Source: an uncultured Mycoplasmatota bacterium (GTDB lineage Bacteria; Bacillota_I; Bacilli_A; RF39; UBA660). Taken from it: 64,000 nt of DNA. Positions 12,062 through 61,036 of the stretch are shown here, one piece after another. The notes beneath the pieces were generated by a model. It saw only the letters and a program-made list of their open reading frames with translations. It was not told the DNA's origin and did no database searches. Positions within the stretch are counted from its first letter, which is position 1; the number at the start of each line of letters is the position of its first letter. Where the stretch lies: the NCBI GenBank assembly GCA_900546245.1, contig URBY01000001.1, positions 10,038 to 74,037 of the forward strand, read 5' to 3'. The position numbers were made by a program, and so were the translations under genes.

Positions 12062-12122
12062 AAGAATTCCTCCTCGCTAGAAAAGTATACCATGAATAGA
12101 TAAAATTAGCAAATGTTACACA

Positions 12123-12150: not shown

Positions 12151-12154
12151 ACTT

Positions 12155-13165
12155 TTATCTTACATATATTGGTTCTTTATGAACACTATTATTTTTATAG
12201 AATACTTCAATATAACCAACTGAACCATCAATTCTATCTTTTTTATTATACATAATTACATTAGTATTAATATTATCTCTTTCATTATTTTTCATTAGAT
12301 AATAATAATTACTCTTTACATATAAATTTTTATATTTTTTAGACTTTATCCTTATTTTCTCCTTATTTATAATCAAATAATTACTATAATTTGCAAACCC
12401 ATATTCATATAATTTTTTATGTGTATTAAAATCATCTCTATCATTAAATGTAACCGCAATTAAATTAACATTCCTTTTAGTTGCACTTGTTACAAGTGTT
12501 CTTTTAGCTTTTACTGTATAACCTGTTTTACCACCTGTTGCATATTTATATGAAAATAATAACTTATTTTTATTTGTCCAAGAATATACATTTGCATTTG
12601 TCTCAACCATTATTTTTTTAGTACTATCTATTTCCTTAAAATCATATAAATTATTTGCATATTTCATTAAAAGTGCCATATCATAGCAAGTTGAATAATT
12701 TCCAGTCTCATCATCATCAAGACCAGATGGATTATTAAATACAGTATTTTTCATACCAATTTCTCCTGCTTTTTCATTCATTTTATTAACAAATTTATCA
12801 TGGCCTCCTAAATAATCTTCAATAGCAAGTGCAGCATCATTTCCACTTCTAAGAAGTAGTCCATATACTAAATTTCTAAGACTTATTTTTTCTCCTTCTT
12901 TAATATATATACCAGAACCATGTGATTTTAATATACTTTCATTAATAGTAACCATATCATCTAGTTTACCAGATTCAATTGCAAGTACTGCCGTCATTAT
13001 TTTTGTAGTACTCGCAATTAAATGTTTTTCATTAATATTTTTAGAAAACAATATTCTACCAGAATCCTGATCGATAAGTATAGCATTATTACTTGGTACT
13101 GATATAGCAAAACAAGTATTTAAACCTATAAAAAATGTAATTATAAAAACTATAAATTTCTTCAT
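12155..13165 (-). CDS. D-alanyl-D-alanine carboxypeptidase (peptidase S11, PBP5-like), 336 aa
   Basis: Signal peptide, then SxxK (ASTTKIMT), SxN (RSGND) and KTG (GGKTGYT) motifs. Confidence 0.75.
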   Translation of the reverse strand: MKKFIVFIITFFIGLNTCFAISVPSNNAILIDQDSGRILFSKNINEKHLIASTTKIMTAVLAIESGKLDDMVTINESILKSHGSGIYIKEGEKISLRNLVYGLLLRSGNDAALAIEDYLGGHDKFVNKMNEKAGEIGMKNTVFNNPSGLDDDETGNYSTCYDMALLMKYANNLYDFKEIDSTKKIMVETNANVYSWTNKNKLLFSYKYATGGKTGYTVKAKRTLVTSATKRNVNLIAVTFNDRDDFNTHKKLYEYGFANYSNYLIINKEKIRIKSKKYKNLYVKSNYYYLMKNNERDNINTNVIMYNKKDRIDGSVGYIEVFYKNNSVHKEPIYVR

Positions 13166-13210
13166 ATTTATACCTCTAATAAACTATATGAAAAAAGACT
13201 ATAAATAGTC

Positions 13211-13819
13211 TTATGAAGTATATATTCCATGTAATTTTTCAATATCACTATTACTTAATTGGTCTAATTGCCATTCACCATTTACTTTTGTTAAAGTAAA
13301 TTCAATAGTATATTTTACTGTATCAGTTACTTTTTCCATTTCAGATATTTTATATTCCATAAATTTATCTTCATCATAATCAGTAGCTGTAATATTATCT
13401 GTTTCATCTGATTTTTCATTAGTAGTTACAGTATCTTCTTCTTTAGCAGTTGTTTTATCTTCTTTTTTAAATTCATCAGGATGTGAATTTAAATATTCAT
13501 TTGCTTTTTTAATAGCTGATCCATAATCATATACTGTTATTTCTGCTTCTACAACAGCATTATTATCCTCTATTATTTCATCTTTAATCTCATATTTCAT
13601 ATTCTTATATTGCTTAGTCATAAGAGTTTTGTATCTTTCTTGATGATCTGCTACTTTTATATCATTTTTAATTGTATTTACTAAATCTTCTATAATATCA
13701 GAATTTTCATTTTTATATTTATCTAAAAATTCTGATACCTTTTGTTTTGGTGTAGTAGCAGCACCTAATGTACATGCAGATAAAAGAATTACAAATAATG
13801 CTAAAAATACTTTTTTCAT
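13211..13819 (-). CDS. Lipoprotein, hypothetical (203 aa from the RBS-supported start)
   Basis: An AGGAGG RBS precedes the internal ATG at 13819-13817 (MKKVFLALFVILLSAC… lipobox LSAC), upstream of which the ORF remains open. No known domain. Confidence 0.5.
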   Translation of the reverse strand: MKKVFLALFVILLSACTLGAATTPKQKVSEFLDKYKNENSDIIEDLVNTIKNDIKVADHQERYKTLMTKQYKNMKYEIKDEIIEDNNAVVEAEITVYDYGSAIKKANEYLNSHPDEFKKEDKTTAKEEDTVTTNEKSDETDNITATDYDEDKFMEYKISEMEKVTDTVKYTIEFTLTKVNGEWQLDQLSNSDIEKLHGIYTS

Positions 13820-13880: not shown

Positions 13881-13907
13881 AAATGAGTAATTATTTTTTA
13901 CCCATTT
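13881..13907 (-). terminator. Intrinsic terminator at the end of the SpaA-like gene
   Basis: 8-bp stem AAATGAGT…ACCCATTT (one G·U) followed by a long U-run on the minus transcript. Overlaps the last codons of the gene. Confidence 0.5.
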
Positions 13908-16470
13908 TTTTGTTTAAAATTATTAATCCTGCAATTGCTACAACTAATACTGTTATTATAATAGCATATCTAATTCTTTGTTGTCCTGTTGAAATATTAA
14001 TAATTAATTCTGCTTGTGCTTCAGCACCTTCACCAACAGTAACTTTTTTATTAATGATTGTTGTTGTACCAATTACATATCCATTTTCATTAACAACAAA
14101 ATCAGCATTTGTTTCACTTACCTTTGGAAGTACAAATCCTTCTGGTGCTTCTATTTCAACCACTCTGTACTTTCCTTTAGCATTTACATCTACAAAGCAA
14201 GTTTCACCATTCGCAACTGGTGAAAATGTATATATATCACTTTTACCAGTTGTATCAAATGTATAATTATTTTCCTTTTCATGGAATATTAATGATACAT
14301 CTTCATATGTTGAATTTTTTTCATTATATACTTGTATTTTAAACTTACCATCAGCTAAATAGTTGCCATCTTCATCTATTTTATAGAAACAGAACTCTCC
14401 TTTTGCATTTGGCCACTCTAATATCTGAGCTGGAGATGTTTGTCCACTTCTTGTTACTACAACTTTAATTTCTTTCCATTCAACAGTTGGATCAATCACA
14501 TATCCATCCACAGTTTTAACTTCTTTTAAATAATATGTCCCAACTGGTAAATAATTAATTGTTATTTTACCAGATGCATTTGTAATTAATTGAATTGGTG
14601 TTCCTGTTCCACCTTCTGGATATTGATATATTCCTTCACCTGTTTTAGTCAAATTAATTTGCTTTGACTTATCACTGTTATATAATTCAAAAGTTACACC
14701 CGGTAATTTTACATTATTCTTACCTTTTTTAATAATCTCAACCTTTGTTTTATAATTATTAACAGTTACAGATGCATTTGATGCTCTTTCATATTTTTTA
14801 GTAGTGTAATTATATACGAATAAATCATAATTAACATCTATTTTTATTTTTGTTTCTCTTTCTTCTTTGGTACTAGAAAGCGTATATGGATATACAACTC
14901 CTGTTTCTTCAATTATATATTCACCTTTAGGTAAAAGTGCAAATACATATGTACTTTTATTTGCATCATATAATGTATTTACATCTCCACTAGATGAATA
15001 AACATAACTTCCACTATTTAATTTTTTAAATTTAATATAATTACCATTAGAATCTTTTATTCTAAAATGAGTTCCCTTTACTACTTCCTTAGTTGTTCCA
15101 TCAATTTTATTAATAGAATATTTTTTACTTTCATTATAAATATTTACAAGTGCTATCTCATTTTCAGAGCCAGGTTTTACACTGTTTTTATTAGCTTCAG
15201 GAACACTTACAACTGTTTTACCATTTTTTATACTAAATAGAACATAAAAATCTCCTATTTTTTCATATCCTGGTGGTGTTTGTGTTTCTCTAAATAAATA
15301 ATAACCTGTTTTTAATAATTTATATTCTTTAGAAGTAGAATTATTTGATAAATCAATTGTATAAGCAACATTTTTTAAGTCACAATCTCCAGTTGTATTA
15401 GTACATTTAAATACATTAAATTTTGCTCCCTTTAAATCTGTTCCTGTATCTTTATCCTTTTTTACAATTTTAAATTTACCTTCCTCTGTTTTTACATTTA
15501 ATGATCTTTCAAATACTTTTTGATAGTTACCCATTAATACATCTTGTAATCCAGCAGTAGCAAATCTAAACCATCTAAATGATGAACTACCTGCAACTGT
15601 AGTACCTTTTACTAATTTAAATTTTATACTTGCAGGATTTTCAATTGTATTTTTTGAATAAAATTTAACTTTACCTCCATTTTTATCAGATATTGATACA
15701 CCACTTGGAAGTGATGATGTATCTATATTGTATGAACCAACATCAATACCTTCTGATTCATATTGTTTAGTCGAATCATTCCAAGATAAAGTAAATGTTT
15801 GTCCAAATGCTGCTGGAACATTACCTTCTCCTGATAAATCACGAGCTTGATCTAGTATATTCTTATATATTGATAGAAGAGCTGGATCACTTGAAACATA
15901 ATTATATGTATTATTAGGTACACCATTTTGTGGATCATAATTATAATTATGTCTAGCATTTTCCATTACTTCCCATACAAGTATTTGTGTAACTAATACC
16001 CTTCTACATACATTTGCGTCTCTACATGTTGCTTTAAATCCACCACTGTTTGGAACAACAATTGTTCCTTCTATATTATTATTACCATTTTGATATCCAC
16101 TTGCTAATATATTTTTTAAAAGTTCTTGCTGTGATGCAGATAGTGTTTGTCCTGTTGTTGTACTATATAAATCTGCAAAACCACTATGCTCATAAACAGT
16201 TTCTTTTTCATGAACACCTTTACCAGCATGTAAACAGTAACCATGGTAATAATCATTTCCTTGATAAACTTCATGTATATTAAACCAAGATGATTGATAA
16301 AAGTTATGTGCAACACTATTACTTATATTATATCTACCACCAGGTGCAGTAGTAAATGTTGATAATTTAACCCATTTTGTACTATATTCCCATGCTGAAA
16401 CATTTCGAAATGGAAAGAAGATAATAATTGAAATAAATAATATAATAAATAATCTTAACTTCTTATTCAT
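13891..16470 (-). CDS. Secreted multi-domain surface protein with SpaA/CnaB-type (prealbumin-like) domains and a C-terminal sorting-signal-like anchor (NISTGQ + TM + KKMGKK), 859 aa
   Basis: The start is the RBS-supported (AGGAGG) ATG at 16470-16468 (MNKKLRLFIILF… signal peptide). CnaB-like segments (YYLFRETQTPPGYEK; TYYLKEVKTVDGYV; GKYRVVEIEAPEGFV). C-terminus …NISTGQQRIRYAIIITVLVVAIAGLIILNKKMGKK. Confidence 0.6.
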   Translation of the reverse strand: MNKKLRLFIILFISIIIFFPFRNVSAWEYSTKWVKLSTFTTAPGGRYNISNSVAHNFYQSSWFNIHEVYQGNDYYHGYCLHAGKGVHEKETVYEHSGFADLYSTTTGQTLSASQQELLKNILASGYQNGNNNIEGTIVVPNSGGFKATCRDANVCRRVLVTQILVWEVMENARHNYNYDPQNGVPNNTYNYVSSDPALLSIYKNILDQARDLSGEGNVPAAFGQTFTLSWNDSTKQYESEGIDVGSYNIDTSSLPSGVSISDKNGGKVKFYSKNTIENPASIKFKLVKGTTVAGSSSFRWFRFATAGLQDVLMGNYQKVFERSLNVKTEEGKFKIVKKDKDTGTDLKGAKFNVFKCTNTTGDCDLKNVAYTIDLSNNSTSKEYKLLKTGYYLFRETQTPPGYEKIGDFYVLFSIKNGKTVVSVPEANKNSVKPGSENEIALVNIYNESKKYSINKIDGTTKEVVKGTHFRIKDSNGNYIKFKKLNSGSYVYSSSGDVNTLYDANKSTYVFALLPKGEYIIEETGVVYPYTLSSTKEERETKIKIDVNYDLFVYNYTTKKYERASNASVTVNNYKTKVEIIKKGKNNVKLPGVTFELYNSDKSKQINLTKTGEGIYQYPEGGTGTPIQLITNASGKITINYLPVGTYYLKEVKTVDGYVIDPTVEWKEIKVVVTRSGQTSPAQILEWPNAKGEFCFYKIDEDGNYLADGKFKIQVYNEKNSTYEDVSLIFHEKENNYTFDTTGKSDIYTFSPVANGETCFVDVNAKGKYRVVEIEAPEGFVLPKVSETNADFVVNENGYVIGTTTIINKKVTVGEGAEAQAELIINISTGQQRIRYAIIITVLVVAIAGLIILNKKMGKK

Positions 16471-19400
16471 TGTCATATCCTCCTTCTTCCATTTCATCTT
16501 CTGTAACCTCATTATCTATAATTGTATATTCATCATCATCAACAATTTCTAAGAAATTAGTAATAATTGGCTTTATTTTTAAATCTGTTGCTGCAACAAA
16601 ATTTATATAATCTCCACCATTATTTGTAACTAAATCTAATACAATTGTTATATAATATTTTTCACCAGGCATAATCATTGTTTTATTAAGGTCTTTATAA
16701 TATAAATTACCTTCACTTTCATACCATCCATCATTTTCTGGTAGATTTGGATTAAATGTCATACCTTCTGGTATTGTTTCTATAATATTTCCGATTGTAC
16801 CTGGAAAATATCTTGAGTTTTCAAGTTCAATTAAGTAACTTACTCTAAATGATGTATTTTTTAAGTTTTTAACATCTATTTTAACTTTATTTTGTTTTTC
16901 ATAATCATATGATTGAACACCTTTATTAGATGTTACTGTTACATTTGTTATATATTTATTCATTTTAATATCAAAATCTTGTCTTACTCTTAAACCTAAA
17001 TCGATATTTGATGCCGCAACTATATCATTATCTAACTTAACTATATTAGACACTGCTGAACAAGTTCCATCGTTTAACATATCTGCATCAGAATCTACTA
17101 AAGATAAATCTCCTTTACCTGTAGGATCCTGTTTATTTTTTTCTGTTACAGTATATTTATCACAATCAAATGTATATTTAACATAATAATTACCAGATGT
17201 TAATGCTTTAAATTTATAAGCACCTTTTAAATTTGTTACAGTTTCTTCAACTAATTCATCACTATCACTTATAACTTCTAATGGCTTTTTATAATCTGTT
17301 ACATTTGAAGATGCTTTATATAATTGAACTATAATATCTGATAATCTTGGTTCTTTATTAGAATATATTCCATCATAATTTTGATCTTCAAATACATAAC
17401 CTGATATTGTTCTATTATATACAGAAACTGTTGAAACATTTGAGCTATATACTCTTGTACCTATTTCAGTAGATGTACATTCATTTTCATTTGCATCTTC
17501 ATCCTTACAAATTAAACTATTTTTATGTAACATATAGAAATTATTATTATATGTATCTAATTCTTTGTTACCTTTTGTTGTTATTACAATATTTATTCCG
17601 GTTTCACCTGCGAAATAACTTCCCTTTTGAATTGGATTTGATGAAACAATTTTTATTGCAGTAACATCATTAGTTACAAAAGTATAGTTTGTCCATTTTG
17701 TCCAATTAACAGAATTTGAATTTTTCATTTCATTATTTAATATTGTTTTAGGATTATCCTTTGTATAATATGCTTCATAACCTGCTGGTAATGTATTATA
17801 TATAGAAACACCAATAGTTCCACTATAAGTTGATCCATATGATGAACCAACACCATCACCATTATAAGGAAGTATATTTAATAATTCTAAGTTGGCATTA
17901 TCTGCTACAAGATTTGTAGCCTTCATATTATAACCATAACTTCCATTTGCCTCGATATAATTTAGACCAACAGAACCAAGTGCTGTAATATCATTTGTAT
18001 TTCTCAAAATTATTTCTTTTGTATTTGTTCTTAAACTTTCTGGTGTATTTGCTGGAATTTCAAGTGTTGCATTTGTATTAGGTTTTACCTTACCTGTTAT
18101 TACCGCTTTTATATTAGCAGCAGTATTATCCAAAGTATTAATAACTACATAAGCATGAATTTTTAATACTGGTATAGTTCCTGCGGCTGAAACACTTTCT
18201 TTTTTTATTTCCTCTGCACTATAGCTATATGAATATGTTAAATAACTTTTACCATTAGCATCTGTAGCTTCAGATGGAGTACCTACTGGTTTTTTATCTC
18301 CCTTTAATACTGCAACCGTCATAGATGTTGGAAGTGTAACACTTACTGTAGCACCTGATATTTCAGCATTCATATCTGATTTATATATTACTGGTCTTAT
18401 TTGAATTTCCATTGGATCATTTTGTCCAGAATATATTTCATTTTTCTCTGAATTATTTTTATCAAGAACTGTTATATCATCTATTGATGCTTTTAATCCT
18501 GTTACAATAATACTATTACCATATTTACTTTTTGGGCTTTCCTCTTTTGATACTTTATACATTGCATTATCATATAATGTTTTGCTATAAGACATATCAC
18601 TTGTTTGTTTAGACAAATTAACTGGTATTACATTTTTTCCTGATTCATACATATAAAATCTTTCTTTATTACCATCTTGTTCCCAGTCTGTAAATCCACG
18701 TGAGACAACTTGATATGAATTACCAACTAAATTTGTGTTATTTTTAACTTGTGCTTTAAATCTAAGAGTTGTTGTAACACCTGTTTTGTATGTACTTGAA
18801 ACATTTAATCTAATAAGAATTATTTTATCACTATTACTGCTATTTACAGCTGTTGCTTCATTTATTGATTCATACCATTTAACAGATGAATTTTCTTCTA
18901 TACATGGTCCGCCATAATAATTCATTAATTCTTCTTTTGATAATTTTGATAAATTAGTTGGACAATAGCTTGGTGCATCACTTTTAACTTTAAAATAATT
19001 TGAATTCCATTCACCAATACCATAATTTAATGTATATTGATGATTTTTATCCTTATCACTAAAGTTAATATAATAATCTTTACTTTCATCTGATAAATTA
19101 TTTATATTTATAATTTTTATTGCTGTATTATCTATTTTTAAATAGTTTGTGATTCCATTTGGTAAATCATCACCTACATTAAGCCCATAATTTATTGTAT
19201 CTTGTATATAAAATTCTTCATTATAGTTATAAAATGCAGAATTTGGTAATGTAGTAACTGGTTTATCTGTTATTTCAGATGTTTGAATATTATTTGAATT
19301 AATAAAATCAACTTTTGATAGATAATCCCCTACAAAAGGGACATAATTATCTAACATAGTTATACTCTCACCATTTGCTGATATTGTATAATTAATATTA

Positions 19401-20512
19401 CTCTTATTTGTAAAATCTGTTCTTTCAGTATTAATAATTAATTGTTTTGTTGATACATAATTTACATTAACCGGTTTATCTTCTGTACCTAAATTAATTG
19501 TTTTATCATGATACATTAAATTTTTTATTGTTATTTTGTATGTATTATCATTTACTTTTTCAATACCAGAATTACCATTTTTATTACCATCATATGAATA
19601 AGGAAGCTCTGCAATTACATATTCACTATCACTATTATAATTTCCAACAGTAGGAGTATCTAATACTCTTGAAATTGCTAAATCAGAAGAAATATTTACA
19701 TCAAAAGATATTTTTGAAGGAACCTGTAATCCAAATATTCCCTTGTTAGAATCAAATGGTAAATATATAGCAATACCTACTGGTAATGAAGCACTACCAA
19801 CTTCTTTTCCTTTAACAACACCATTATATAATTTTAAATTCCATGCTTCTTTTGCAGTTACTGTTACTTCTTTAACACTTATGCTATCAGATACATCTGA
19901 ATCATCTGTATAAATTTTATAATTTTCATCTGTTGATTCTCTAACTCTTATAAGTGGATTAATTGTTTGATTATTTTTCGAATTTATATTAGAAACATTA
20001 ATTCTAGCTGTATTTTTATCAGTTAAAACTGAATCAGGTATATCAAAAATATAATAATTATAATTTTTACCATCAATTGTAATATTCTCATGTTTTGATG
20101 CTGCAGTTGCAGTTGATGAATCACCTTTTTCAGATACATCTGCTGTTATATCTGATGGTAAAAGAAAATCAACTATAACATGACGTTGTGGATCTGTAGG
20201 TTTTTCATCTAAACTAGAATCTTCTTTATAATCAAGATTATAAGATATATCATATTCTACCGAATCAAAACTTCTTACAATTCCATTACTATCAGATGAA
20301 TCATTTCCTTCTTCATCATTAGAATCAAAATTACCATCTTTATTTGGTGTACCATCTATAACAGATACTTTTGCATTTTTTACTTCAATTTGATTAGCAA
20401 AAGGATCTTCTTCTGCAGTAACAAATAAATATATACCGAATGATAATATTAAAAATGCAAAAACTGATAATACAATTCTATATTTATATATAAATTTTTT
20501 TATAGTTTTCAT
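16463..20512 (-). CDS. Giant secreted adhesin-like protein (1349 aa) with SdrD B-like/CnaB and DUF11-like repeat domains and an acidic C-terminus
   Basis: The start is the GGAGG-supported ATG at 20512-20510 (MKTIKKFIYKYRIVLSVFAFLILSFGIYLFVTA signal). SdrD-B-like SGYVFEDQNYDG…, DUF11-like …GTIGNIIETIPEGMTFNP…. The stop overlaps the start of the next gene (ATGAATAA). Confidence 0.6.
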   Translation of the reverse strand: MKTIKKFIYKYRIVLSVFAFLILSFGIYLFVTAEEDPFANQIEVKNAKVSVIDGTPNKDGNFDSNDEEGNDSSDSNGIVRSFDSVEYDISYNLDYKEDSSLDEKPTDPQRHVIVDFLLPSDITADVSEKGDSSTATAASKHENITIDGKNYNYYIFDIPDSVLTDKNTARINVSNINSKNNQTINPLIRVRESTDENYKIYTDDSDVSDSISVKEVTVTAKEAWNLKLYNGVVKGKEVGSASLPVGIAIYLPFDSNKGIFGLQVPSKISFDVNISSDLAISRVLDTPTVGNYNSDSEYVIAELPYSYDGNKNGNSGIEKVNDNTYKITIKNLMYHDKTINLGTEDKPVNVNYVSTKQLIINTERTDFTNKSNINYTISANGESITMLDNYVPFVGDYLSKVDFINSNNIQTSEITDKPVTTLPNSAFYNYNEEFYIQDTINYGLNVGDDLPNGITNYLKIDNTAIKIININNLSDESKDYYINFSDKDKNHQYTLNYGIGEWNSNYFKVKSDAPSYCPTNLSKLSKEELMNYYGGPCIEENSSVKWYESINEATAVNSSNSDKIILIRLNVSSTYKTGVTTTLRFKAQVKNNTNLVGNSYQVVSRGFTDWEQDGNKERFYMYESGKNVIPVNLSKQTSDMSYSKTLYDNAMYKVSKEESPKSKYGNSIIVTGLKASIDDITVLDKNNSEKNEIYSGQNDPMEIQIRPVIYKSDMNAEISGATVSVTLPTSMTVAVLKGDKKPVGTPSEATDANGKSYLTYSYSYSAEEIKKESVSAAGTIPVLKIHAYVVINTLDNTAANIKAVITGKVKPNTNATLEIPANTPESLRTNTKEIILRNTNDITALGSVGLNYIEANGSYGYNMKATNLVADNANLELLNILPYNGDGVGSSYGSTYSGTIGVSIYNTLPAGYEAYYTKDNPKTILNNEMKNSNSVNWTKWTNYTFVTNDVTAIKIVSSNPIQKGSYFAGETGINIVITTKGNKELDTYNNNFYMLHKNSLICKDEDANENECTSTEIGTRVYSSNVSTVSVYNRTISGYVFEDQNYDGIYSNKEPRLSDIIVQLYKASSNVTDYKKPLEVISDSDELVEETVTNLKGAYKFKALTSGNYYVKYTFDCDKYTVTEKNKQDPTGKGDLSLVDSDADMLNDGTCSAVSNIVKLDNDIVAASNIDLGLRVRQDFDIKMNKYITNVTVTSNKGVQSYDYEKQNKVKIDVKNLKNTSFRVSYLIELENSRYFPGTIGNIIETIPEGMTFNPNLPENDGWYESEGNLYYKDLNKTMIMPGEKYYITIVLDLVTNNGGDYINFVAATDLKIKPIITNFLEIVDDDEYTIIDNEVTEDEMEEGGYDNE

Positions 20513-20587
20513 ATGAGCCTCCATATTATTATTTCTTATAATAATTAAACCATTTTTTTTAAATAAAATCAATAAAATACAAAAAAA

Positions 20588-24070: not shown

Positions 24071-24340
24071 TTATATAAAACCTTCATACCCATCTATTAC
24101 ATTAACTACATCGTATCCCATTACTTCAAGAAATTTACAGCATCTTTTACTTTTAAATCCTTCTGTACAATATATGTAATATGTTTTATCTTTATCCAAA
24201 TACATATTAGGCATATCTGTTAAATTATTCATATCAATATTTTTTGAATTATATATATGTCCTTTCATATATGCACCTTTTGTTCTTAAATCAATTATAT
24301 TGTATTCTGGTTTTAAATCACATGCTTTTATATTTTTCAT
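24071..24340 (-). CDS. Single-domain rhodanese-like sulfurtransferase, 89 aa
   Basis: 89-aa rhodanese fold with an active-site Cys loop YCTEGFKS. Confidence 0.6.
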   Translation of the reverse strand: MKNIKACDLKPEYNIIDLRTKGAYMKGHIYNSKNIDMNNLTDMPNMYLDKDKTYYIYCTEGFKSKRCCKFLEVMGYDVVNVIDGYEGFI

Positions 24341-24403: not shown

Positions 24404-24492
24404 GAAAAAAATGCACAAAATATTGAAAATATTGTGCATTCTTATATTTTTTAAGCACTATTTTGCGCAATCATTGTGCATTTTTTATTCTT
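24404..24492. repeat. Direct repeat copy A (about 87 bp) carrying two palindromic hairpins; the 3' flank of the Fic gene
   Basis: …AATGCACAAAATATTGAAAATATTGTGCATT…TGCGCAATCATTGTGCATTTTTTATTCTT. About 85% identical to copy B at 25604-25690. Includes the stop and last codon of Fic. Confidence 0.6.
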
Positions 24493-25567
24493 TTCCTACA
24501 AATACATTATATATTTCACTATATCTATATGCTAGTTTTGCATAATTATCATCAATATCTAATATACCTATTTTAACAAGCTCATCAATTAATGTTGAAA
24601 CTGTATTTCTTGATACACCAGATTCTTCTTCTATCTCTTTTTTTGTAAATACAATTTGATGTATTAATGATGGCATAATTCTATAAACAGCATTACTATT
24701 GAGTGTTTTAATTTTTTGCATATCTTTATTATATATTTCTTTAATTCTATTTATTTTAGCAATATAATTATTACACTGTTCAATAATACACTGCAAAAAG
24801 AATTTAATAAATCCAGCCATATTACCTTTTCTACTTTCATTTAAATATTTATGATAACTTGGTTTATAAAGTTCAATTACTTCTGATAAAAAAAGTATTG
24901 GTTTATCATCAGTTAACATTGCAAGTTGTATTGGAATAAGTGCTCTACCTAATCTTCCATTACCATCTCTATATGCATGTATTGTTTCAAATTGAGAATG
25001 AGAAATAGCCATATTTACAAATATTGGATCAATAAATTCATCATTCATATATTTAAATAAATTATCTAAAAGAATTGGAACATCTTCCGGAATAGGAGGA
25101 ACATAAATAGCCTCTTTAATTGTACATCCTCTTGGACCAATCCAATTTTGAATATTTCTAATTTTTCCAGGTTCTTTATTTTGACCTCTAACACTATCTA
25201 ATAATATCTTATGAATATTATTTACAAAAACTAAATCTATTTTTCTATTTGTCTTGATATAATTTTCCGAATATTCAATTACTTCTTTTAAATTTTGTAT
25301 CTCACTCTTCTCATCATTATTTGGCATATATTTTATATAATACATATCATCTTGAGAAATTTGTGTTCCTTCAATTTGTGTAGATTTCAAACTTTCGCTT
25401 AAGATAATTGAATCTAAAAAATATCTTGAGTCAAAATCAATATTTTTTAAATAAGTTTTATACTCTCCATATTTTTCATTTGCCTCAGATAATAACTTTA
25501 ATAACTCTTTATCAATTTTATATTCAATTGGTAACTCATTTACTTTAATTGGTTCCATTTTCATCAC
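24485..25567 (-). CDS. Fic-family protein (AMPylation-type motif, probable N-terminal inhibitory helix, C-terminal winged-helix), 360 aa
   Basis: Canonical Fic motif HAYRDGNGRLGR. An upstream STQIEG matches the (S/T)xxxE(G/N) auto-inhibition motif. C-terminus is wHTH-like (…VSRNTVSTLIDELVKIGIL…). Confidence 0.8.
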   Translation of the reverse strand: MMKMEPIKVNELPIEYKIDKELLKLLSEANEKYGEYKTYLKNIDFDSRYFLDSIILSESLKSTQIEGTQISQDDMYYIKYMPNNDEKSEIQNLKEVIEYSENYIKTNRKIDLVFVNNIHKILLDSVRGQNKEPGKIRNIQNWIGPRGCTIKEAIYVPPIPEDVPILLDNLFKYMNDEFIDPIFVNMAISHSQFETIHAYRDGNGRLGRALIPIQLAMLTDDKPILFLSEVIELYKPSYHKYLNESRKGNMAGFIKFFLQCIIEQCNNYIAKINRIKEIYNKDMQKIKTLNSNAVYRIMPSLIHQIVFTKKEIEEESGVSRNTVSTLIDELVKIGILDIDDNYAKLAYRYSEIYNVFVGKE

Positions 25568-25603
25568 CTATCGAGATATTAACATTTTTTTTATTAAAAG
25601 TAA

Positions 25604-25690
25604 AGAAAATGCACAATATTTTCGATATTTTGTGCATTTTTACTTTTTTTAGACACTATTTTGCACAATGATTGTGCATTTTTTATTCTT
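25604..25690. repeat. Direct repeat copy B (about 87 bp) at the 3' end of the T4CP gene
   Basis: …AATGCACAATATTTTCGATATTTTGTGCATT…TGCACAATGATTGTGCATTTTTTATTCTT. Perfect palindrome TGCACAAT-G-ATTGTGCA plus a T-run, so it is terminator-like. Includes the stop and last codon of the coupling-protein gene. Confidence 0.6.
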
Positions 25691-27926
25691 CAAAGAAGAA
25701 ATCATCAAAGAAATCATCATAATCAGAATCATTATCTTTTTTGACATTATTTTTTTGTTCTTCTTTATTTTCATTATCCATTTTTTCTTTATCATCTTTT
25801 ATTTTAAAGTTTTCAAAATCAACCATATTACTATGAATAATCTCATTTACATTTGGATCAGTTGATATATTTCTTGTATCAAATAATTTTTCTTCTTCAC
25901 TATTACTCTTAATAGGTTCTGGTTCTGATGCAGGTTTATCTATATTTTTTTCTTCTAAATTATTAATTACTTCTTCTTTAGATTCTATTTTTTTATTTTT
26001 TTCTGCTTCTTGTTTCTTCTTTTCTTCTTCCTCTTCTTTTTCAAGTTCAGCAATTTTAGCATCAATTTCCTTGATCATTTTATCAATATCCATATCTGAA
26101 CCCATACCTTTTATACCACCAAAAGGATTCATACCAAAAGGTGAACCACCACCCATTGGTGAAGAAGAATTACCATCAAAACCTGCATTTTGAAGCTTTT
26201 CTTGTTTTTGTTTTCTAACAAATTCTTTCAAATCAAATGTTTTAATCTCATCCATAGTTCTTTGTGGATAAACAACATTTTTTCCATAGTGATCAACACC
26301 TCTACCAAAACCAAAATCAGTATCCCAGTCCATTTTTAGTTTTCCCCTGAAAGGCGCACATCTTTGTTTAATTAATATGATTTCATCAGGCTTCATTCTT
26401 TGAAGTTCTGATACAGTAACAAGAGGTCTTGTTTCTTCTTTTTTATCTTTACCAACTCTAACAAGTTTATCACCACATAATTTACTAATTTCTTCCAAAG
26501 CTGATAATTCTCCTGTTAATAAATATATTAAGTTACCACAGTTACCACGAATAGTTTCAGCATCATGATCACCATAATTTTGTTTTAACTGTGCAAAATT
26601 CTGAATGATAAATGTAAATCTAATTTGTCTTGAACGAGCAGCAGTAACCATTGTTGTAATATCTTTAAACTTAGGCATGTTAGCAAACTCATCAAGTAAG
26701 AAATTTGTTCTAACAGGAAGTTTTCCACCATGTTGTTGTGCAACATTTATTAAAGCTTCATAACATTGTTTAACAAATATAGTAGCAAGTGAATGGTATG
26801 TTGTTTTTTCATCTTGTATAATCATAAATACTGCTGTTGGTTTTTCACCTATACTATCCATATCAAAATCACTCTTAGAAAGCATTTCAGATAAGTTTTT
26901 AGTAACAGCTAGTGTTTTAACCTTGTCCTTTAATACAGATACGATACCACCTTTTGTTTCATTTGGTGCATTAACTGTACCTAAAGCATTAACACATGCT
27001 GGCGAAGCTGGATCTTTAGCATTAAAATATTCCTTTAAATAGTTTGATGCACCATATTTATCTTCACCTGTTGTCATCATTAAATTAACACTATTTATAT
27101 TTATTTCTTCTTCTGGAGCATCCTCAAATAAAGCAAGTGATAAACCTGTTAAATAACTAGCAGCAGAATTTTGCCAGAATGGATCTTGTCCTTGACCATC
27201 TACAACTATATTAAGTGATAAGTCATTTAAAAGTTCATTTGCTTTATCAAAATTACCTTCCTTTTGATATTTGTATGGTAAATGATAAGGATTCCAACAG
27301 TTACCTTTTTGTGGATCACGGAAATTAAGTATTATAATTTGATAACCTAGTTCCCTCATTATTCCAGAATTATCATTATATATTTCACCTTTAGGGTCAG
27401 ATATAATCATTGATTCTCTACCCTTTATAAGCATTTGAACAGTTGGATTAATTATACCTTGAGTTTTACCTGAACCTGTCGCACCAATAACAAGTGTATG
27501 ACTTTCACCATTATCTACATAAGCTGCTTCTTTATCATATACTAAAGGTGTACCACCTGCTTTTGCTTCTTTTTCAACATATGGAACTCTTACAACACCT
27601 TTGGCTTTTTTTATTTCTCCCTCTTTTGCCCATCTAGCATAACCATCTTCTTTTTTCTCACTAGTATAACCAAAACCTTTTTCTCTAGTAAAGAAATATG
27701 ATGATGTACTTGCAAATAGAAATGCAATAGAAGCAATCCAAAGCATTATTGTTACACCAATATATTTTGGAGTAAACGCTAAAAATGGATTTAATCCCCA
27801 AGGTGTACCTTCATTTATAATAAATGAGAAATTAAGTACACATAAACATACTAAATAAAGCATAAAAACAGATATTACTGCAAACGCTATTACATCTTTT
27901 TTTTCTGCCCTAAACTTTAATTTCAT
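25683..27926 (-). CDS. Type IV secretion coupling protein (VirD4/TraG-family T4CP), 747 aa
   Basis: N-terminal TM helices, Walker A VIGATGSGKTQG, Walker-B-like FLLDEFANM and an acidic/charged C-terminal tail. Confidence 0.7.
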   Translation of the reverse strand: MKLKFRAEKKDVIAFAVISVFMLYLVCLCVLNFSFIINEGTPWGLNPFLAFTPKYIGVTIMLWIASIAFLFASTSSYFFTREKGFGYTSEKKEDGYARWAKEGEIKKAKGVVRVPYVEKEAKAGGTPLVYDKEAAYVDNGESHTLVIGATGSGKTQGIINPTVQMLIKGRESMIISDPKGEIYNDNSGIMRELGYQIIILNFRDPQKGNCWNPYHLPYKYQKEGNFDKANELLNDLSLNIVVDGQGQDPFWQNSAASYLTGLSLALFEDAPEEEININSVNLMMTTGEDKYGASNYLKEYFNAKDPASPACVNALGTVNAPNETKGGIVSVLKDKVKTLAVTKNLSEMLSKSDFDMDSIGEKPTAVFMIIQDEKTTYHSLATIFVKQCYEALINVAQQHGGKLPVRTNFLLDEFANMPKFKDITTMVTAARSRQIRFTFIIQNFAQLKQNYGDHDAETIRGNCGNLIYLLTGELSALEEISKLCGDKLVRVGKDKKEETRPLVTVSELQRMKPDEIILIKQRCAPFRGKLKMDWDTDFGFGRGVDHYGKNVVYPQRTMDEIKTFDLKEFVRKQKQEKLQNAGFDGNSSSPMGGGSPFGMNPFGGIKGMGSDMDIDKMIKEIDAKIAELEKEEEEEKKKQEAEKNKKIESKEEVINNLEEKNIDKPASEPEPIKSNSEEEKLFDTRNISTDPNVNEIIHSNMVDFENFKIKDDKEKMDNENKEEQKNNVKKDNDSDYDDFFDDFFFEE

Positions 27927-27969
27927 AAAATCTCTTCCTTCTTATCAATTTACTATATTATAACAAAAA

Positions 27970-27993
27970 AATAAGTATTTTGAAATACTTATT
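27970..27993 (-). terminator. Intra-operon intrinsic terminator/attenuator between the hydrolase and T4CP genes
   Basis: Perfect 10-bp stem AATAAGTATT / AATACTTATT with a 4-nt loop. The A-run on the plus strand gives a U7 run on the minus transcript. Confidence 0.45.
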
Positions 27994-27996
27994 TAA

Positions 27997-30900
27997 TTAT
28001 TGGTTTGCATATCTATTATAAATTTGATTTGCATTCGATACTCTTGAATTCTGAGCACTTATTGATTGGTCTGCAGGACGTTCAAACTTAAGCATAAACG
28101 CTTTTGTAGCAGAATCAACACTAACATTAGGATTTTGCAATGTATTATATAGGTCACTAAACTGAGTTGGAAGTATTCTATTAAGATAATCTATTTGCAT
28201 TGCAGTATCACCAATAGACAATTTTCTTTCAGTTTTTGCATAATCATACAATCCTTCTTTTAATGTGTAGTAAGTCCACTGGACAATACCATATCCTCCA
28301 CCATTTGGTCCATTTTTAGAAAATGAAGTACGATTTATAGACCCTTTATCTACATTATCTGTATAAGTAATACTCGTTTCTGTAACACTACCATTCCCAG
28401 ATGTATCACCTTGTAAAACTCTACCATCAAATGTTGCCGCAGATTCAGTATACATATTTCCCATTATACCAGCAACAGCAGTTTTAGGATATCCTAAACC
28501 TACTAAATAGTTCCAAACTGCTTCTTCATTATTTGAACCAGCAAATATACCTCCAGAAGAACATTGAATAAATAAATTTGTTGGATCAATAGCTGAATCC
28601 TGATCATTATGAAATTCAAAATGTAACCCTGGATTAGATGAAGCACCAATCACTCCAATTTTAGTACCTTTTGATACATTAGTTCCTTTTGTAAGAGTTA
28701 CAGAATCTAAATTATTATATACTGAGTAAAAATTATATTCATTATTACCAATAACAATATTATGTTTTATCTTAACCCAAGATCCATATGTATCATTCAC
28801 TGAACCACCAATAGCATTTTTTATATTATTTACAAGGATAGCTTGACCACTAGAATTTAAATGTAAACCATCATTTGTATATGAAGACTTAATATATCCA
28901 TTTGATTCATTAAGTCCATTTGTTACATCAACATATGTTGCCCAAGAATTTGATGAACACCAAGAACTCATAGTTTGATTAAAGCTATCTATCATAGCAT
29001 TTGTAACAGAACCTCTATACTTAGTTCCAACATGATATACACTATTAACATATATTTGAGCACTTGGATATCTTGTATGAAGACTATTTAACATATTTTG
29101 CATATTTGAAGTCTGACTAACATTATTTACCCCTAACATAACTGATATACCATTTGCAGTACTTGGCAAAGCAATTCTTGTTCCTAACACAGTACCACTA
29201 CCATTACTTGCTACGCTCTCCCACTGTGCTGGAGTAGAACTTGTAACCGCCGCTACTGTGTTATTTTGACCTAAACCTTCAAGATTACTTTTAATTCCTA
29301 CATATCTTGAATCACCTATAAATAAATAATTTGATATTGATGATGTACTTTGATTTGAACTTCCACTTGTTCCAACACTATCAACAACACCATTTGCAAT
29401 AGCAAATACATCAGTTCCAGCTGAAACACCTGCAGTAGATGAATTTAAATCAACACCTCCATGAAATCCAGCAGAAGTAACACCAAAAGAATTATTTTCA
29501 CCAAAAGAAACCGTTGTTCCTTCTGGTATATTTACAGGTTTTTGAAGTTCGGATACTAAATTTGCATCAATTGCTCCCAAACAACTATCAGCATAACCTT
29601 CACTATCAGAATCAATATATTGTAAAAATATATCTTTAAATAAATTTTTATTTGATACTATATCTTTATATAAATATTCCTTTTTTTCTTCTCTTGCATC
29701 TCCTGTAAGTCCACCTAACATACTTCTAAACTCAGGCATACGTTCAAAATAGTAATTCATTAAATAATTTTTATAATTTTCTTCATCAAAAGCAAATTGT
29801 CTATATGTTACTTTTATACCTGTAAGTGATACATCAACATCTGTTATATCTGCAATACCATAAAATATATCACTAACGAGCACTTTAAACGTATCTACAA
29901 AATCTCCACCAATTAATGATAAATTTTGAAAATATTCTCCGGAATATTTTGATCCTATGGCATCCGCATATATTTCATTAAACGGTAATAATATCGAAGT
30001 AAATGTATAGGCTACGAAATCAGATAGCATATCCTTTACATCATTAGCGATATTACTACCATATTCATCTAAAAAATCGGATAAAGATACTGTTTTTGTT
30101 GGCCCTTTTCTCTCTGATAAACCAAATGAATTTGTATAAAATTGGTTCCTAGCTAGTTTACGTAACCTATATATTTTACCAACATTATATGTAAGGCCAT
30201 CTTCTCCTACAGTTTCTTTTGACATGTCATATTTTTCTCTCAAATATTCTTTTACAACATTTTGACTACCAGAATTAGACCCTATTGATGATCCATCAAG
30301 AACAGAATCATCATCCATTTCACCATATTCAGTATCATAACCCATGCCTTCTGTATAAAATAATGTTGCCAAAATAAGAGGTACATCCATACCGGTTTCA
30401 TCGTTTGAACAACCATATCTATCGCACAAATCATCTAATTCATCATAAAAAGCCTCTTTTGAATCTTGAAATCCAAAACCATTATAAAAATTAGTTAACT
30501 TTTCACTAAAATCTGCAGTCTTAGTAATAGCTTCATCTATATTACCCCAAACTTCCATTAATGGACCTAGTATTAATTCTATTACAAAAAATGCAAGTGC
30601 TAAACCTAGAATTAAACCTGCTGCATATGGTGCAATTGCAAGCAATATTTTTTTTGCTACCTTTTTGGCAGCTGTTTTTACAGCTGCCTCAGCAGTACTC
30701 TTAGCAGCTTCTATAGGATGCCTTGCTTGATATGCTTTAGATTTTAAATTATCTTTTTTTGCATTAAAAATATCTTTTTTAGCATCTTTTAAATTATTTT
30801 TTTCTTTTTTCTCATTTGCTTTTGCTTCTTTAGCTTCTGATTTAGCATTTTTATATTCTTCCTTATCAGAACTAGTTCTTTGTCCTCTTGGGATAGAATT

Positions 30901-61035: not shown

Positions 61036-61036
61036 T

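Follow-up and report, generated by a model that had tools for sequence, protein, structure and literature searches.

A SoFic-family Fic gene between two copies of a double-palindrome element behind a T4SS coupling protein gene in an uncultured gut Bacilli member

A Fic gene bracketed by two similar direct repeats lies directly behind the coupling protein gene (T4CP) of a chromosomal type IV secretion system (T4SS) in an uncultured gut Bacilli member, which raises the question of whether gene and repeats belong to the secretion system or form a unit of their own. An earlier note on this DNA had read the repeats as a T4CP 3' end duplicated upon insertion of a Fic module and had likened the protein to T4SS-delivered effectors. 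The answer that we favour, and hold to be probable, is that the unit E-promoter-SoFic-E at 24405-25682, E denoting an element of ~80 nt within each repeat, constitutes a self-contained defence cassette in which E would act as operator and insulating terminator, and that its place next to the T4SS would be incidental. All coordinates refer to the window, i.e. the whole stretch of 64 kb that was analysed.

The repeat pair and the gene between its copies

Repeat search and alignment in the window gave one direct repeat of 88 nt with a spacing of 1198 nt, whose copies (24405-24492 and 25603-25690) align without gaps at 84% identity, close to the roughly 85% reported before, and bracket the gene for a 357-aa Fic protein; the repeat is present in these two copies only in the 64-kb window. 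Both palindromes and the T-run that had been described were located in each copy (Table 1), namely h1, which is short and perfect, and the longer h2, which is followed on the coding (minus) strand by the T-run, a U-run in RNA (U7 in copy A). In copy B, h1 reads TGCACAAT-C-ATTGTGCA. Over the 64-kb window the palindrome TGCRCAATSATTGTGCA was found only at 24464 and 25662 (0.49 expected) and TGCACAA-N-TTGTGCA pairs only at 24412, 25610 and 25662 (0.01 expected). RNA folding of the two E copies against shuffled controls yielded z = -5.2 and -3.2, and an Rfam search with E returned no family above threshold, the best match being STnc240 with 30.7 bits at a gathering score of 55.

As stated earlier, the repeats supply the stop and last Glu codon of the gene that each follows, GAATAA ending both Fic and T4CP within the last 8 nt of the 88-nt repeat, which is probably trivial, these being largely native gene ends. 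In relatives without E, T4CP natively ends in GAAGAATAA and keeps the terminus ...DDFFDDFFFEE*, and Fic homologues at other loci end in GGAAAAGAT.../GGTAAAGAT... (GKD...), so that five of the eight terminal repeat bases are native to Fic. T4CP itself is the last gene of the chromosomal T4SS block, with synteny in about 80 species, and the identities of both adjoining genes as given before were upheld by Pfam; for T4CP, NCBIfam conju_CD1115 scored 323 bits at a cutoff of 250. Between copy B and the Fic gene a consensus match predicts a promoter, in which a -35-like TTTACT adjoins the T-run of h2 and is followed by a 17-nt spacer, an extended -10 box TGTTAATAT and the RBS AGGTGA. The arrangement E-(C/G)TTTAC-~17 nt-TGnTAxxAT-RBS precedes Fic in all other genomic contexts too. 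Copy A is likely both the Fic terminator and the second recombination partner.

Table 1. Features of the Fic locus in window coordinates
Feature	Position	Strand	Basis or remark
Rhodanese gene, conserved downstream neighbour of T4CP	24071..24340	(-)	Pfam Rhodanese
Element E copy A (downstream, 'right')	24405..24484	(-)	Adjoins Fic stop codon; repeat alignment, folding
Copy A, h2	24410-24440		Followed by U7
Copy A, h1	24464-24480		Perfect palindrome
SoFic-family class II Fic AMP-transferase, 357 aa	24485..25558	(-)	PADLOC SoFic; Pfam Fic_N+Fic
Putative C-terminal wHTH region of Fic	about 24560-24622		Weak Pfam HTH_36 match
Fic active-site motif (residues 194-205)	24944-24979		
Inhibitory motif (residues 59-64)	25367-25384		
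Predicted Fic promoter and RBS	25564..25604	(-)	Consensus match in sequence; same layout in other contexts
RBS	25564-25569		
Extended -10 box	25576-25584		
-35-like box	25599-25604		Adjoins h2 T-run
Element E copy B (upstream in transcription direction, 'left')	25606..25682	(-)	Directly 3' of T4CP stop codon
Copy B, h2	25608-25638		Followed by U-run
Copy B, h1	25662-25678		Perfect palindrome
T4SS coupling protein (VirD4/T4CP, CD1115 family)	25683..27926	(-)	Pfam T4SS-DNA_transf 1e-60; NCBIfam conju_CD1115

The protein encoded between the repeats carries the Pfam domains Fic_N and Fic and matches the PADLOC SoFic model (PDLC03963) with E=1.6e-86, residues 6-352 of 357 aligning to profile positions 11-357 of 361. 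The NCBIfam SoFic equivalog gave 99 bits at a cutoff of 550, which marks a distant family member and not an ortholog of the Shewanella SoFic. The inhibitory motif noted before, S59TQIEG64, is present; it is of the class II type, (S/T)xxxE(G/N), lies N-terminal to the Fic core and is invariant in an alignment of 10 homologues. The active site, claimed to be a canonical HxFxDGNGRxxR, is likewise in place (HAYRDGNGRLGR, H194AYRDGNGRLGR205), with all catalytic positions and no variation among the homologues, although it has Y where the canonical motif has F. At the C-terminus a winged helix-turn-helix (wHTH) is suggested by a Pfam HTH_36 match below cutoff (E=0.0015), and phmmer aligned residues 148-334 to residues 152-342 of SoFic (PDB 3EQX/3ZCN), a span that includes the SoFic wHTH; these structures are the best full-architecture PDB relatives. 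Judged by its domains and motifs, the protein is a full-length member of the SoFic family of class II Fic+wHTH proteins. SoFic is a toxic class 2 Fic protein acting as a single-protein defence, and abortive-infection protection against phages is known for other members of the family (PMC12249575), by analogy with which an anti-phage function may be assumed here. As a dimer, SoFic binds to its own promoter, in the 100 bp that precede the ATG (bioRxiv 10.64898/2026.07.09.737422), and CccR (inhibitory helix S59ARIEG), a related Fic-wHTH protein that is secreted by a T6SS, represses its own gene via two inverted 10-bp repeats, 26 bp apart, near the -35/-10 boxes (PMC9755527).

Presence, loss and exchange of cargo behind T4CP

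When T4SS loci were compared across relatives, as the earlier note had suggested, the presence of Fic between the repeats turned out to vary even within the species. Same-species strains (T4CP 97-99% and rhodanese 99-100% identical) show the order T4CP-solo E-rhodanese without Fic (L147, L174, L181, L213), and the sister species Clostridium sp. CAG:433 (L012) lacks Fic as well. These alleles support the proposal that Fic is an inserted module, dispensable at this spot; the repeats are tied to the cassette. Their supposed origin as a T4CP 3' end duplicated at insertion is contradicted by the 16% difference between the copies, set against 97-100% identity of the flanking genes among strains, by the lack of any such element in outgroups with 74-82% identical T4CP, and by the same E bracketing Fic homologues at other loci. 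On sequence grounds E is the cassette's own cis module and not a copy of the T4CP end. The outgroups keep the T4SS-T4CP-rhodanese synteny, the rhodanese gene following only 52 nt after T4CP, and neither E nor Fic was found in them (L014, L248-L251).

The solo E is copy-B-like in four same-species contigs (L174, L213, L181, L186), copy-A-like over its full length in L147 and chimeric in the sister species (L179), and these three crossover types indicate that Fic was lost via recombination between the repeats. Among 80 species with this T4SS, Fic was located within 10 kb of it in L013 only. At the nucleotide level Fic is 93.5% identical between the window and L013, the T4CP core 92.5% and RmuC 92.9%; as the Fic value about equals that of the flanks, a recent horizontal transfer of Fic between the two was discarded.

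Other cargo found in the T4CP slot comprises IrrE-Fic plus XRE and an MqsR/Panacea pair, and different cargo adjoins the same E right edge in L188 and L146/L216. A two-cassette array, E-Fic-E-TA, is present in L101. There the cassette is preceded by an endolysin gene and by 30 nt from the tail of T4CP, for which prophage integration into the 3' end of T4CP is the best explanation. L243/L169 hold an array-like locus, 117 aa-E-177 aa-E. A universal hot spot between T4CP and rhodanese was rejected, since in distant relatives that position is taken by a conserved gene for 410-435 aa.

The exchange of cargo at one E edge and the arrays would suit an attachment site, resembling attC of integrons or pdif of Acinetobacter, at which a host recombinase swaps cassettes beside a resident E. 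Like recombinase sites, E also contains one short motif several times in inverted copies, and in L156, L242 and L175 the order is resident E, partial cassette-type E, promoter, Fic and resident-type E. We nevertheless consider this explanation improbable: no recombinase, integrase or transposase was found among the ORFs of the 64-kb window, the cassette has its own predicted promoter, and the arms of E fit neither the attC core sites (RYYYAAC/GTTRRRY) nor an 11-6-11 Xer site, which speaks against the attC-like site considered before. Furthermore, the three crossover positions in the solo alleles are unlike a fixed cleavage site, and the extent of the duplication varies by locus: L098 has the recA tail together with E, L156 has E and a further 17 nt, and L212 has a tmRNA end of 38 nt.

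Element E at other chromosomal sites

SoFic homologues with flanking E occupy about ten unrelated sites on the chromosomes of related gut Bacilli, located between cadherin-like and Fur, recA and rny, rlmH and spoIIR, Zn-ribbon and AraC, and DUF4097 and ABC genes, at tRNA-Thr, at an AlaX-like gene and at tmRNA, where only the upstream E copy is present. In a second lineage (L156), a different T4CP-like gene follows E-Fic-E after ~600 nt. Across 10 contexts the homology begins 125-130 nt before the Fic ATG, with E in every context occupying the same interval, 45-130 nt ahead of it, and ends 82-88 nt past the last Fic codon where the downstream E adjoins the stop codon. The same outer boundaries at about ten unrelated sites imply that the unit has relocated; no two contexts were seen to share an identical Fic protein, which together with the divergence of Fic in step with its flanks points to movement that is rare and old. 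The two E copies of a locus usually share a locus-specific linker (L226, L098, L156, L259), which suggests that insertion involved either duplication of the target element or gene conversion. Regarding the orthology of left and right copies across loci, several left copies have a 'TGTCTAAAAAAAGT' linker in common (window, L013, L238, L212 and the partial E of L156), while elsewhere both copies are locus-specific. Carriage on phages or plasmids was dismissed: a phage collection gave no match, a plasmid search matched only a 66-nt Fic_N stretch on one Bacillus plasmid, and IMG/VR yielded three contigs with Fic at the contig end only. Contigs of ~1.2 kb containing Fic alone were not taken for circles either, assembly breaks at E being the simpler explanation in view of near-identical flanking copies and mixed alleles.

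This distribution also bears on the idea that Fic is a T4SS-delivered effector of the Bartonella Bep/VbhT type placed behind its coupling protein, the repeats being the target duplication of the insertion. The co-oriented position directly downstream of T4CP would fit, as would the T4CP-like gene near the L156 cassette and the secretion of the related CccR, though by a T6SS (PMC9755527), yet we regard such a role as very unlikely. The protein is a class II Fic with a putative wHTH from the SoFic defence family, lacks a BID domain (Pfam gives only Fic_N, Fic and a weak HTH) and has no separate antitoxin, no small ORF being found between the E copies; it is dispensable within the species while the T4SS is conserved across about 80 species, and sites such as recA, rlmH, tRNA and tmRNA carry homologous cassettes, with close homologues away from any T4SS. 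The repeats are 16% diverged and absent from outgroup T4CP 3' ends. The adjacency of our cassette to the T4SS hence looks incidental from the sequences compared, although its occurrence beside T4CP-type genes in two independent contexts, the window and L156, may be more than pure coincidence.

Aligning 73 unique copies revealed four TGCACA-type half-sites at fixed spacings of 5/25/15, TGCACA-5-TGTGCA being followed after 25 nt (61 copies) or 24 nt (12 copies) by TGCACA-15-TGTGCA. The inverted half-sites ATTGTGCA-N25(24)-TGCACAAT are present in all 73, with the edge of E adjoining the -35 box. The arms do not vary in at least 76 of the 78 unique copies, which were drawn from about a dozen genomic contexts and from species whose proteins share only about 50-80% identity, while linkers and loops vary and provide a single compensatory pair, so that it is the sequence, not structure alone, which is conserved. 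The conservation of h1 is inflated because the collection scan used the h1 pattern; h2 and the spacings are unaffected by this ascertainment bias. E lies 0-45 nt from the stop codons of many unrelated genes, it faces the same way with respect to the upstream gene in nearly every context, and many solo E were found at sites for which no Fic-occupied allele was seen (after endolysin, MBL hydrolase and other genes).

A perfect 13-bp terminal inverted repeat (TIR), AAAAATGCACAAT...ATTGTGCATTTTT, ends both solo E and E-Fic-E. E could thereby be the end of a non-autonomous MITE-like transposon, with E-Fic-E as a composite moved by a trans-acting, unseen transposase that has the TGCACAAT termini as its recognition sites, and with solo E as independent insertions or internal-deletion derivatives; it may be operator and terminator at the same time. 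The TIR on both unit and solo E, sharp and identical boundaries in about ten contexts, solo E after many unrelated genes, the conservation of arm sequence beyond structure and the existence of IS elements in related genomes (TnpB in L258, ISL3 in L261, IS3 in L007) argue for this origin, which we still judge rather unlikely. There is no short duplication flanking E in 78 unique copies, no target-site duplication on comparison with never-occupied sites, and no conserved flanking tetranucleotide. The copy number is very low, with two copies in the 64 kb and none in 1.36 Mb of T4SS loci from 78 relatives, where the 7-mer ATGCACA stays at background (69 and 31 observed, about 54-67 expected). The window contains no transposase, and the nearly always fixed orientation, the locus-specific linkers shared by both copies, the divergence of Fic along with its flanks and the lack of an identical Fic in two contexts are further points against transposition.

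The proximity to stop codons of many unrelated genes and the look of an intrinsic terminator might also suggest a generic REP or terminator repeat that brackets Fic by accident, the finding which, according to the earlier note, would undo a link with Fic. E does follow many unrelated genes across species; it is rare, however, and largely Fic-linked in the sampled sequence, as both copies in the window flank Fic and the T4SS loci of the 78 relatives have none. With an invariance of the arms across species that exceeds the needs of a terminator, and a constant position relative to the Fic promoter at all Fic loci, an accidental bracketing is scarcely credible. A genome-wide uptake signal or REP was likewise rejected, the 7-mer not being enriched in the 1.36 Mb of relatives.

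Proposed working of the cassette and its relation to known systems

We propose that E and Fic arrived directly 3' of the T4CP stop codon in an ancestor that the sister clade shares with the window species, and that Fic thereafter diverged in step with the neighbour genes. A Fic dimer would bind the half-sites of E as a putative operator and repress its own toxic gene, while two RNA hairpins, the second with a U-run, would end transcription, the upstream E shielding Fic against read-through from the T4SS operon and the downstream E terminating the Fic transcript. Recombination between the direct E copies would delete Fic and leave one solo E, which would explain why Fic is now polymorphic, and the slot would take other toxin or defence cargo in some strains. 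As the cassette encodes no recombinase, relocation would need host or trans-acting functions. By analogy, the CccR-like geometry of E adjoining the -35 box and the binding of SoFic to its own promoter make E most likely a Fic-dimer operator and binding site for autorepression. The half-sites of CccR and SoFic are unrelated in sequence to TGCACAAT, which weakens this role, and an operator function alone leaves the strong conservation of Fic-less solo E sites unexplained. As a bolder variant, to which we assign little likelihood, E-SoFic-E might be a new recombinase-less mobile defence cassette whose cargo protein aids its own mobility. The Fic-wHTH dimer would bind TGCACAAT half-sites of both E and pair them, the unit would be excised as an E-Fic circle and re-integrated by host recombination at E-like or terminator sites, and the wHTH would be repressor and recombination-directionality factor in one; this would account for the 40-110-nt target/element duplications, the solo E and the cargo exchange at E.

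For the SoFic-type protein a DNA site can thus be predicted, consisting of TGCACAAT half-sites at 5/25/15 spacing, at a time when the study of regulation in this family is just beginning. The locus would illustrate how a toxic single-gene defence can be packaged for a safe place behind a highly conserved operon, flanked on either side by a putative terminator/operator. It also documents how defence genes are gained, lost and replaced at fixed chromosomal slots in an abundant, uncultured, genome-reduced lineage of human-gut Bacilli; if relocation depends on E, it would represent a new type of non-autonomous cassette. For annotation, position beside T4CP alone does not make a Fic protein a secreted effector. 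In the literature searched we found no description of flanking double-palindrome repeats or insertion/deletion polymorphism for SoFic, nor any of RF39 with a T4SS or of mobile Fic cassettes.

Compared with integron cassettes, the unit has a predicted promoter of its own, the E termini TGCACAAT/ATTGTGCA contain no RYYYAAC...GTTRRRY cores, and no IntI was found among the ORFs of the window. Like IS200/IS605 PATE and REP/RAYT elements E has hairpins, yet without a conserved flanking tetranucleotide and without TnpA/RAYT in the window. A single TnpB was observed, in the related contig L258. Bartonella Bep/VbhT proteins share the Fic domain and the location beside a coupling-protein gene, but are class I Fic proteins with a separate antitoxin (VbhA/BiaA) and a C-terminal BID signal, whereas the Fic studied here is of class II with a putative wHTH and no BID, and its T4SS linkage is neither conserved nor required. 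Phage 'morons' are autonomous promoter-gene-terminator units inserted between neighbouring genes, which our cassette resembles in its layout of putative terminator, predicted promoter, gene and putative terminator and in its place between two genes that are adjacent in relatives; it differs in being chromosomal, not part of a phage genome, and in having sequence-conserved copies of one element as flanks.

MITE-bounded composites of the Correia, RUP and IMU/TIME-COMP type and the pdif modules of Acinetobacter carry small cargo, often toxin-antitoxin or defence genes, without their own recombinase, have short palindromic bounds and occur as solo elements elsewhere. The E cassette resembles them in its small recombinase-less cargo, its palindromic bounds and its 13-bp TIR, and differs in its direct E copies, very low copy number, lack of target-site duplication and of an 11-6-11 Xer-type site, and in its chromosomal location at gene 3' ends in fixed orientation. 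The empty alleles recall solo-LTR formation and direct-repeat deletion in retaining exactly one repeat with variable crossover points, though the E repeats measure only 80 nt, involve no reverse transcription and were not necessarily identical at insertion.

With Shewanella SoFic and E. coli EcSofic the protein shares the (S/T)xxxE(G/N) motif at residues 59-64, the Fic active site, a C-terminal wHTH (putative here) and the layout of a single gene with its own promoter (predicted here). In contrast to them it has Y for the canonical F of the active site, no 47-aa AS1-like antitoxin ORF downstream, where E adjoins the stop codon instead, and an uncultured host from the gut Bacilli with ~25% GC. 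CccR of Yersinia pseudotuberculosis agrees with our protein in architecture (the wHTH being putative here) and in the residue at which the inhibitory helix lies (S59ARIEG, here S59TQIEG). CccR is a T6SS effector, whereas no T6SS was seen in the window. Its half-sites comprise 10 bp and those of E 8 bp, of unrelated sequence (AGATAATCAT in CccR, ATTGTGCA here), and E has four half-sites, doubles as hairpins and sits on both sides of the gene. The layouts nonetheless match, with inverted repeats 26 bp apart by the -35/-10 boxes in the experimentally defined CccR operator and inverted 8-mers 24-25 bp apart adjoining the -35 box in E.

The repeat pair, its Fic gene and the surrounding chromosome

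All genes in this part of the window lie on the minus strand, in the order T4CP (the T4SS coupling protein gene), Fic and rhodanese gene (see the table below). The earlier note had described direct repeats with palindromes and a T-run on both sides of Fic, and a repeat search confirmed them as an ungapped pair of 88 nt (24405-24492 and 25603-25690), 84% identical and 1198 nt apart. Both copies of this element (copy B upstream of Fic, copy A downstream) contain a perfect 8+1+8 palindrome, h1 (TGCACAAT-S-ATTGTGCA), and a longer palindrome, h2, which is followed by a T-run on the coding strand. Neither palindrome was found elsewhere in the 64 kb (expected 0.01-0.5), and in RNA folding both copies scored far better than shuffled sequences. 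The repeat is real and meaningful. It is the mark of a SoFic defence cassette with its cis element. The stop and last codon of each gene do fall inside the repeat, both genes ending in GAATAA, but this is probably coincidence or microhomology, because relatives that lack the element natively end T4CP in GAAGAATAA, and GGAAAAGA belongs to Fic itself.

The PADLOC SoFic model gives a full-length match (E=1.6e-86) to the 357-aa Fic protein (domains Fic_N+Fic), and among structures its best relatives with the full architecture are SoFic entries. The Fic motif is present as HAYRDGNGRLGR, with a Y in place of the F stated earlier.

Features of the window and Fic inserts at other chromosomal sites of relatives
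Feature	Location	Strand	Description
T4SS block	25683-37984		pilin-like genes, VirB6/TrbL_4, PrgI-like, TraC-like, VirB4, GDSL+M23+lysozyme hydrolase, T4CP
T4CP	25683-27926	minus	
Fic	24485-25558	minus	true start is the ATG at 25558
Rhodanese gene	24071-24340	minus	
AbiD/Abi_2 gene	40617-41552		PADLOC AbiD 2e-57
ORF6N/PDC-S05 gene	41899-42753		candidate defence gene (2e-86)
Tandem noncoding units	46062-46626	minus	two units of ~340 nt, downstream of the 230-aa Fic
Fic/Doc-like gene	46638-47330	minus	230 aa, adjoins uvrA
Fic+wHTH gene	52940-53917	plus	325 aa, HTH_24, PADLOC SoFic 7e-39, immediately upstream of uvrB
Surface-protein clusters	13891-20572 and 56371-63342		very large proteins with SpaA/prealbumin-like, SdrD-B and thioester (TED) domains
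Fic insert	L092		between cadherin-like gene and Fur
Fic insert	L098, L255		between recA and rny
Fic insert	L259		between rlmH and spoIIR
Fic insert	L158		after tRNA-Thr
Fic insert	L212		after tmRNA
Fic insert	L156		between Zn-ribbon protein and AraC-T4CP-like, beside polC and suf genes
Fic insert	L226		between DUF4097 and ABC transporter
Fic insert	L218		after AlaX-like gene
Fic insert	L238		divergent promoter region

Exact T4CP and Fic proteins were found on human-gut metagenome scaffolds, the closest species representatives being Clostridium sp. CAG:433 and other uncultured 'Bacilli/Tenericutes' MAGs. The 64 kb (GC content ~25%) are ordinary chromosome, with phosphoketolase, uvrA/uvrB, whiA, lgt, bacA, rmuC and similar genes; integrase, transposase and relaxase genes are absent. 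Many of 80 uncultured gut Bacilli species, down to a T4CP identity of ~50%, keep the gene order T4SS-T4CP-(one gene)-rhodanese-DedA-RmuC. The T4SS therefore looks like a vertically inherited chromosomal feature and is not the edge of an integrative element. Among strains of one species its cell-wall hydrolase is hypervariable (940 vs 1098-1101 aa, with domains gained or lost) and VirB6 is only ~48% identical, whereas identity reaches 99-100% for VirB4, T4CP and the small T4SS proteins (window 27997-31302 and 33954-36026; L002, L004, L006). Distant relatives (L019, L024, L030, L042, L051; ~12100-13500) carry a conserved 400-435-aa gene between T4CP and rhodanese gene, missing from the window clade, which ends in ...GKGT..PY.VR and appears translationally coupled to T4CP.

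Two further Fic-type genes of the window, the 230-aa and the 325-aa gene, are not flanked by the element. The tandem units next to the former are 84-85% identical, and each has a promoter-like start and a hairpin (AAGAACTTTTATAATAAAAGTCCTTC); they had no Rfam match at the gathering threshold and may represent a small RNA that was duplicated or an antitoxin-like locus of type I/III. Together, the AbiD and ORF6N/PDC-S05 genes, which follow an HtrA-like protease just upstream of the T4SS block, make up a second small patch of defence genes. Both surface-protein clusters look like pilus or adhesin genes, notable for a small, low-GC genome.

Fic polymorphism and other cargo behind the coupling protein

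Fic lies between T4CP and rhodanese gene in only one of the 80 species loci, L013 (HRGM_Genome_2006), and the slot of its sister CAG:433 (L012) has no Fic. Metagenome contigs were scanned with the h1 pattern to recover further alleles. Besides occupied ones (L209, L236), five contigs of the window species carry T4CP, a single element and the rhodanese gene without Fic (L147, L174, L181, L213, L186; T4CP 97-99%, rhodanese 99-100%). Compared across related T4SS loci, Fic is an insert that is polymorphic even within the species of the window. The solo element is copy-B-like throughout in L174, L213, L181 and L186 and copy-A-like throughout in L147, while in the sister clade (L179 and relatives) h1 and linker are B-like and h2 is A-like. 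These three kinds are the expected products of recombination between two direct repeats, with the crossover at the right edge, left edge or middle, and loss of Fic by this route is well supported. One more deletion, this time between h1 5' arm and h2 3' arm, would account for the hairpin of CAG:433 (AAAAATGCACAATATTTTGTGCATTTTT).

The element is missing from relatives whose T4CP is 79-82% or 74% identical; their T4CP-rhodanese spacer is 52 nt or short. Between window and L013, nucleotide identity is 93.5% for Fic, 92.5% for the T4CP core and 92.9% for RmuC. Most economically, the ancestor of both clades acquired element and Fic a single time, right behind the T4CP stop codon, and vertical inheritance and repeated loss of Fic followed. 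The earlier reading of the repeats as a fresh target duplication made when Fic was inserted did not hold, since copies A and B differ by 16% and flanking genes are 97-100% identical between strains, which rules out a recent duplication in situ. On one 1630-nt contig (L228) a pnp (PNPase) frame of ~190 codons runs into the last 27 T4CP codons, then the element and Fic; this junction is a metagenome assembly chimera or a real rearrangement.

The same slot also holds other cargo. In L188 (same or nearly same species; 1310-3830) the element is followed by an XRE-HTH gene, a 468-aa IrrE(M78)-Fic fusion with capP-like N-terminus and a 131-aa Gly-rich repeat protein, and in L146 (1091-2655) and L216 by an MqsR-like toxin / Panacea (SocA) antitoxin pair with the antitoxin on the opposite strand. 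L101 (L101/L252) has element-Fic-element and then the MqsR-like/Panacea pair in tandem, and in L243 and L169 two copies surround an uncharacterised 177-aa gene. Alternative cargo behind one element at this slot, together with the tandem of L101, lends some support to a site for cargo exchange, as in integrons or pdif modules, although the defining features of such sites are lacking.

Fic cassettes and solo elements at other chromosomal sites

Elsewhere on the chromosome, at sites unrelated to one another, Fic homologues (69-84% identical) occur as inserts of one gene that point the same way as the genes beside them. In pairwise comparison of ten contexts, cassette homology begins at the left edge of the upstream element, 125-130 nt ahead of the ATG, and, where a downstream element abuts the stop codon, stops at the right edge of that copy, 82-88 nt past the last codon. 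Constant everywhere upstream of Fic is the arrangement h1-linker-h2, (C/G)TTTAC, ~17 nt, extended -10, RBS, Fic; the downstream element is usual, not universal, being absent in L212 and 130 nt away in L238. Solo elements follow endolysin, MBL hydrolase, EF-P and a 552-aa membrane protein, among others, always 0-45 nt past the stop codon and in the same orientation.

A common genome-wide REP or terminator, which the earlier note had considered, is rejected: a search with an nhmmer model through the T4SS loci of 78 other species gave no copy, and the core 7-mer occurs there at about the background rate. The sharp ends of the element-Fic-element unit and its perfect 13-bp terminal inverted repeats are a clue to a transposon-like entity, against which stand the absence of a target-site duplication, the very low copy number and the lack of a transposase in view. 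Footprints at the new sites differ from each other. L156, L242 and L175 show a resident element, a partial 'cassette-type' element, promoter, Fic and a second resident-type element. In L212 (2132-3850) element and Fic come directly after the tmRNA gene, between direct repeats (38 nt) of the tmRNA 3' end plus native terminator (CACCAGATTTGATTGATACTCGAACTTTTCGAGTTTAT). L098 has a duplication that takes in the last ~30 nt of recA as well as the element; its recA is only 88% identical to that of the empty allele L233, vs 98.5% on the downstream side. These footprints point to Campbell-type or homology-facilitated events, whose end points vary, rather than to a precise enzyme.

Further insertions were seen around these loci. 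At L255:2584-2880 (also L256, L258) an extra ~290-nt insert separates recA from the element. It contains a consensus promoter, a short hairpin + U-run and a ~25-codon ORF, and the final ~25 nt of recA stand at both of its ends; at that site it is thus the second small insertion whose target end is duplicated. An ISL3 transposase element (L261:4120-5610, L262) sits within the h2 loop of a downstream element with an 8-bp duplication (CAAAAAAT). Other IS sequences are an IS605-type TnpB behind rny (L258) and an IS3 element behind rmuC (L007).

Element conservation, proposed working and known systems

Of the 78 unique copies, at least 76 have the arms AAAATGCACA...TGTGCATTTT unchanged, with figures for h1 inflated because h1 was the scan pattern, and those for h2 arms and spacings free of that bias. 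Linker and loop sequences vary, with one compensatory change only. Spacings are fixed: TGCACA-5-TGTGCA, then 25 nt (61 copies) or 24 nt (12 copies), then TGCACA-15-TGTGCA. Both sequence and spacing are therefore conserved, beyond what a terminator would require. The central base of h1 is C or G about equally, sometimes T or A, even in otherwise identical alleles (L174 vs L181), as would be expected if the palindrome occasionally inverts.

SoFic, as a dimer, binds its own promoter no more than 100 bp from the start codon (bioRxiv 10.64898/2026.07.09.737422), and CccR represses itself through two inverted 10-bp repeats, 26 bp apart, beside the -35/-10 boxes (PMC9755527). The window Fic is related to CccR, the inhibitory motif starting at S59 in both, and the element resembles the CccR operator: it has inverted 8-mers 24-25 bp apart and itself abuts the -35 box. 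By analogy, a Fic dimer most likely binds the element and holds its own toxic gene repressed; the upstream hairpin + U-run would block read-through from the T4SS operon and the downstream one would terminate the Fic transcript. The gene would act in abortive-infection defence.

The proposal that Fic is a T4SS-delivered effector like Bep/VbhT was not borne out and keeps a small residual probability. A second lineage has element-Fic-element near another T4CP-like gene, and CccR, secreted by a T6SS (PMC9755527), shows that Fic-wHTH proteins can be exported; however, unlike Bep/VbhT, which have a BID domain and a class I Fic, the window protein is class II without BID, and its T4SS linkage is not conserved. 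As a SoFic defence gene the insert belongs to known kinds. The conserved double-palindrome on both sides, the solo copies left of it and its dispersal to the 3' ends of many genes of uncultured gut Bacilli appear to be undescribed; autoregulation by a Fic-wHTH protein and insert loss by direct-repeat recombination are likewise of known kinds.
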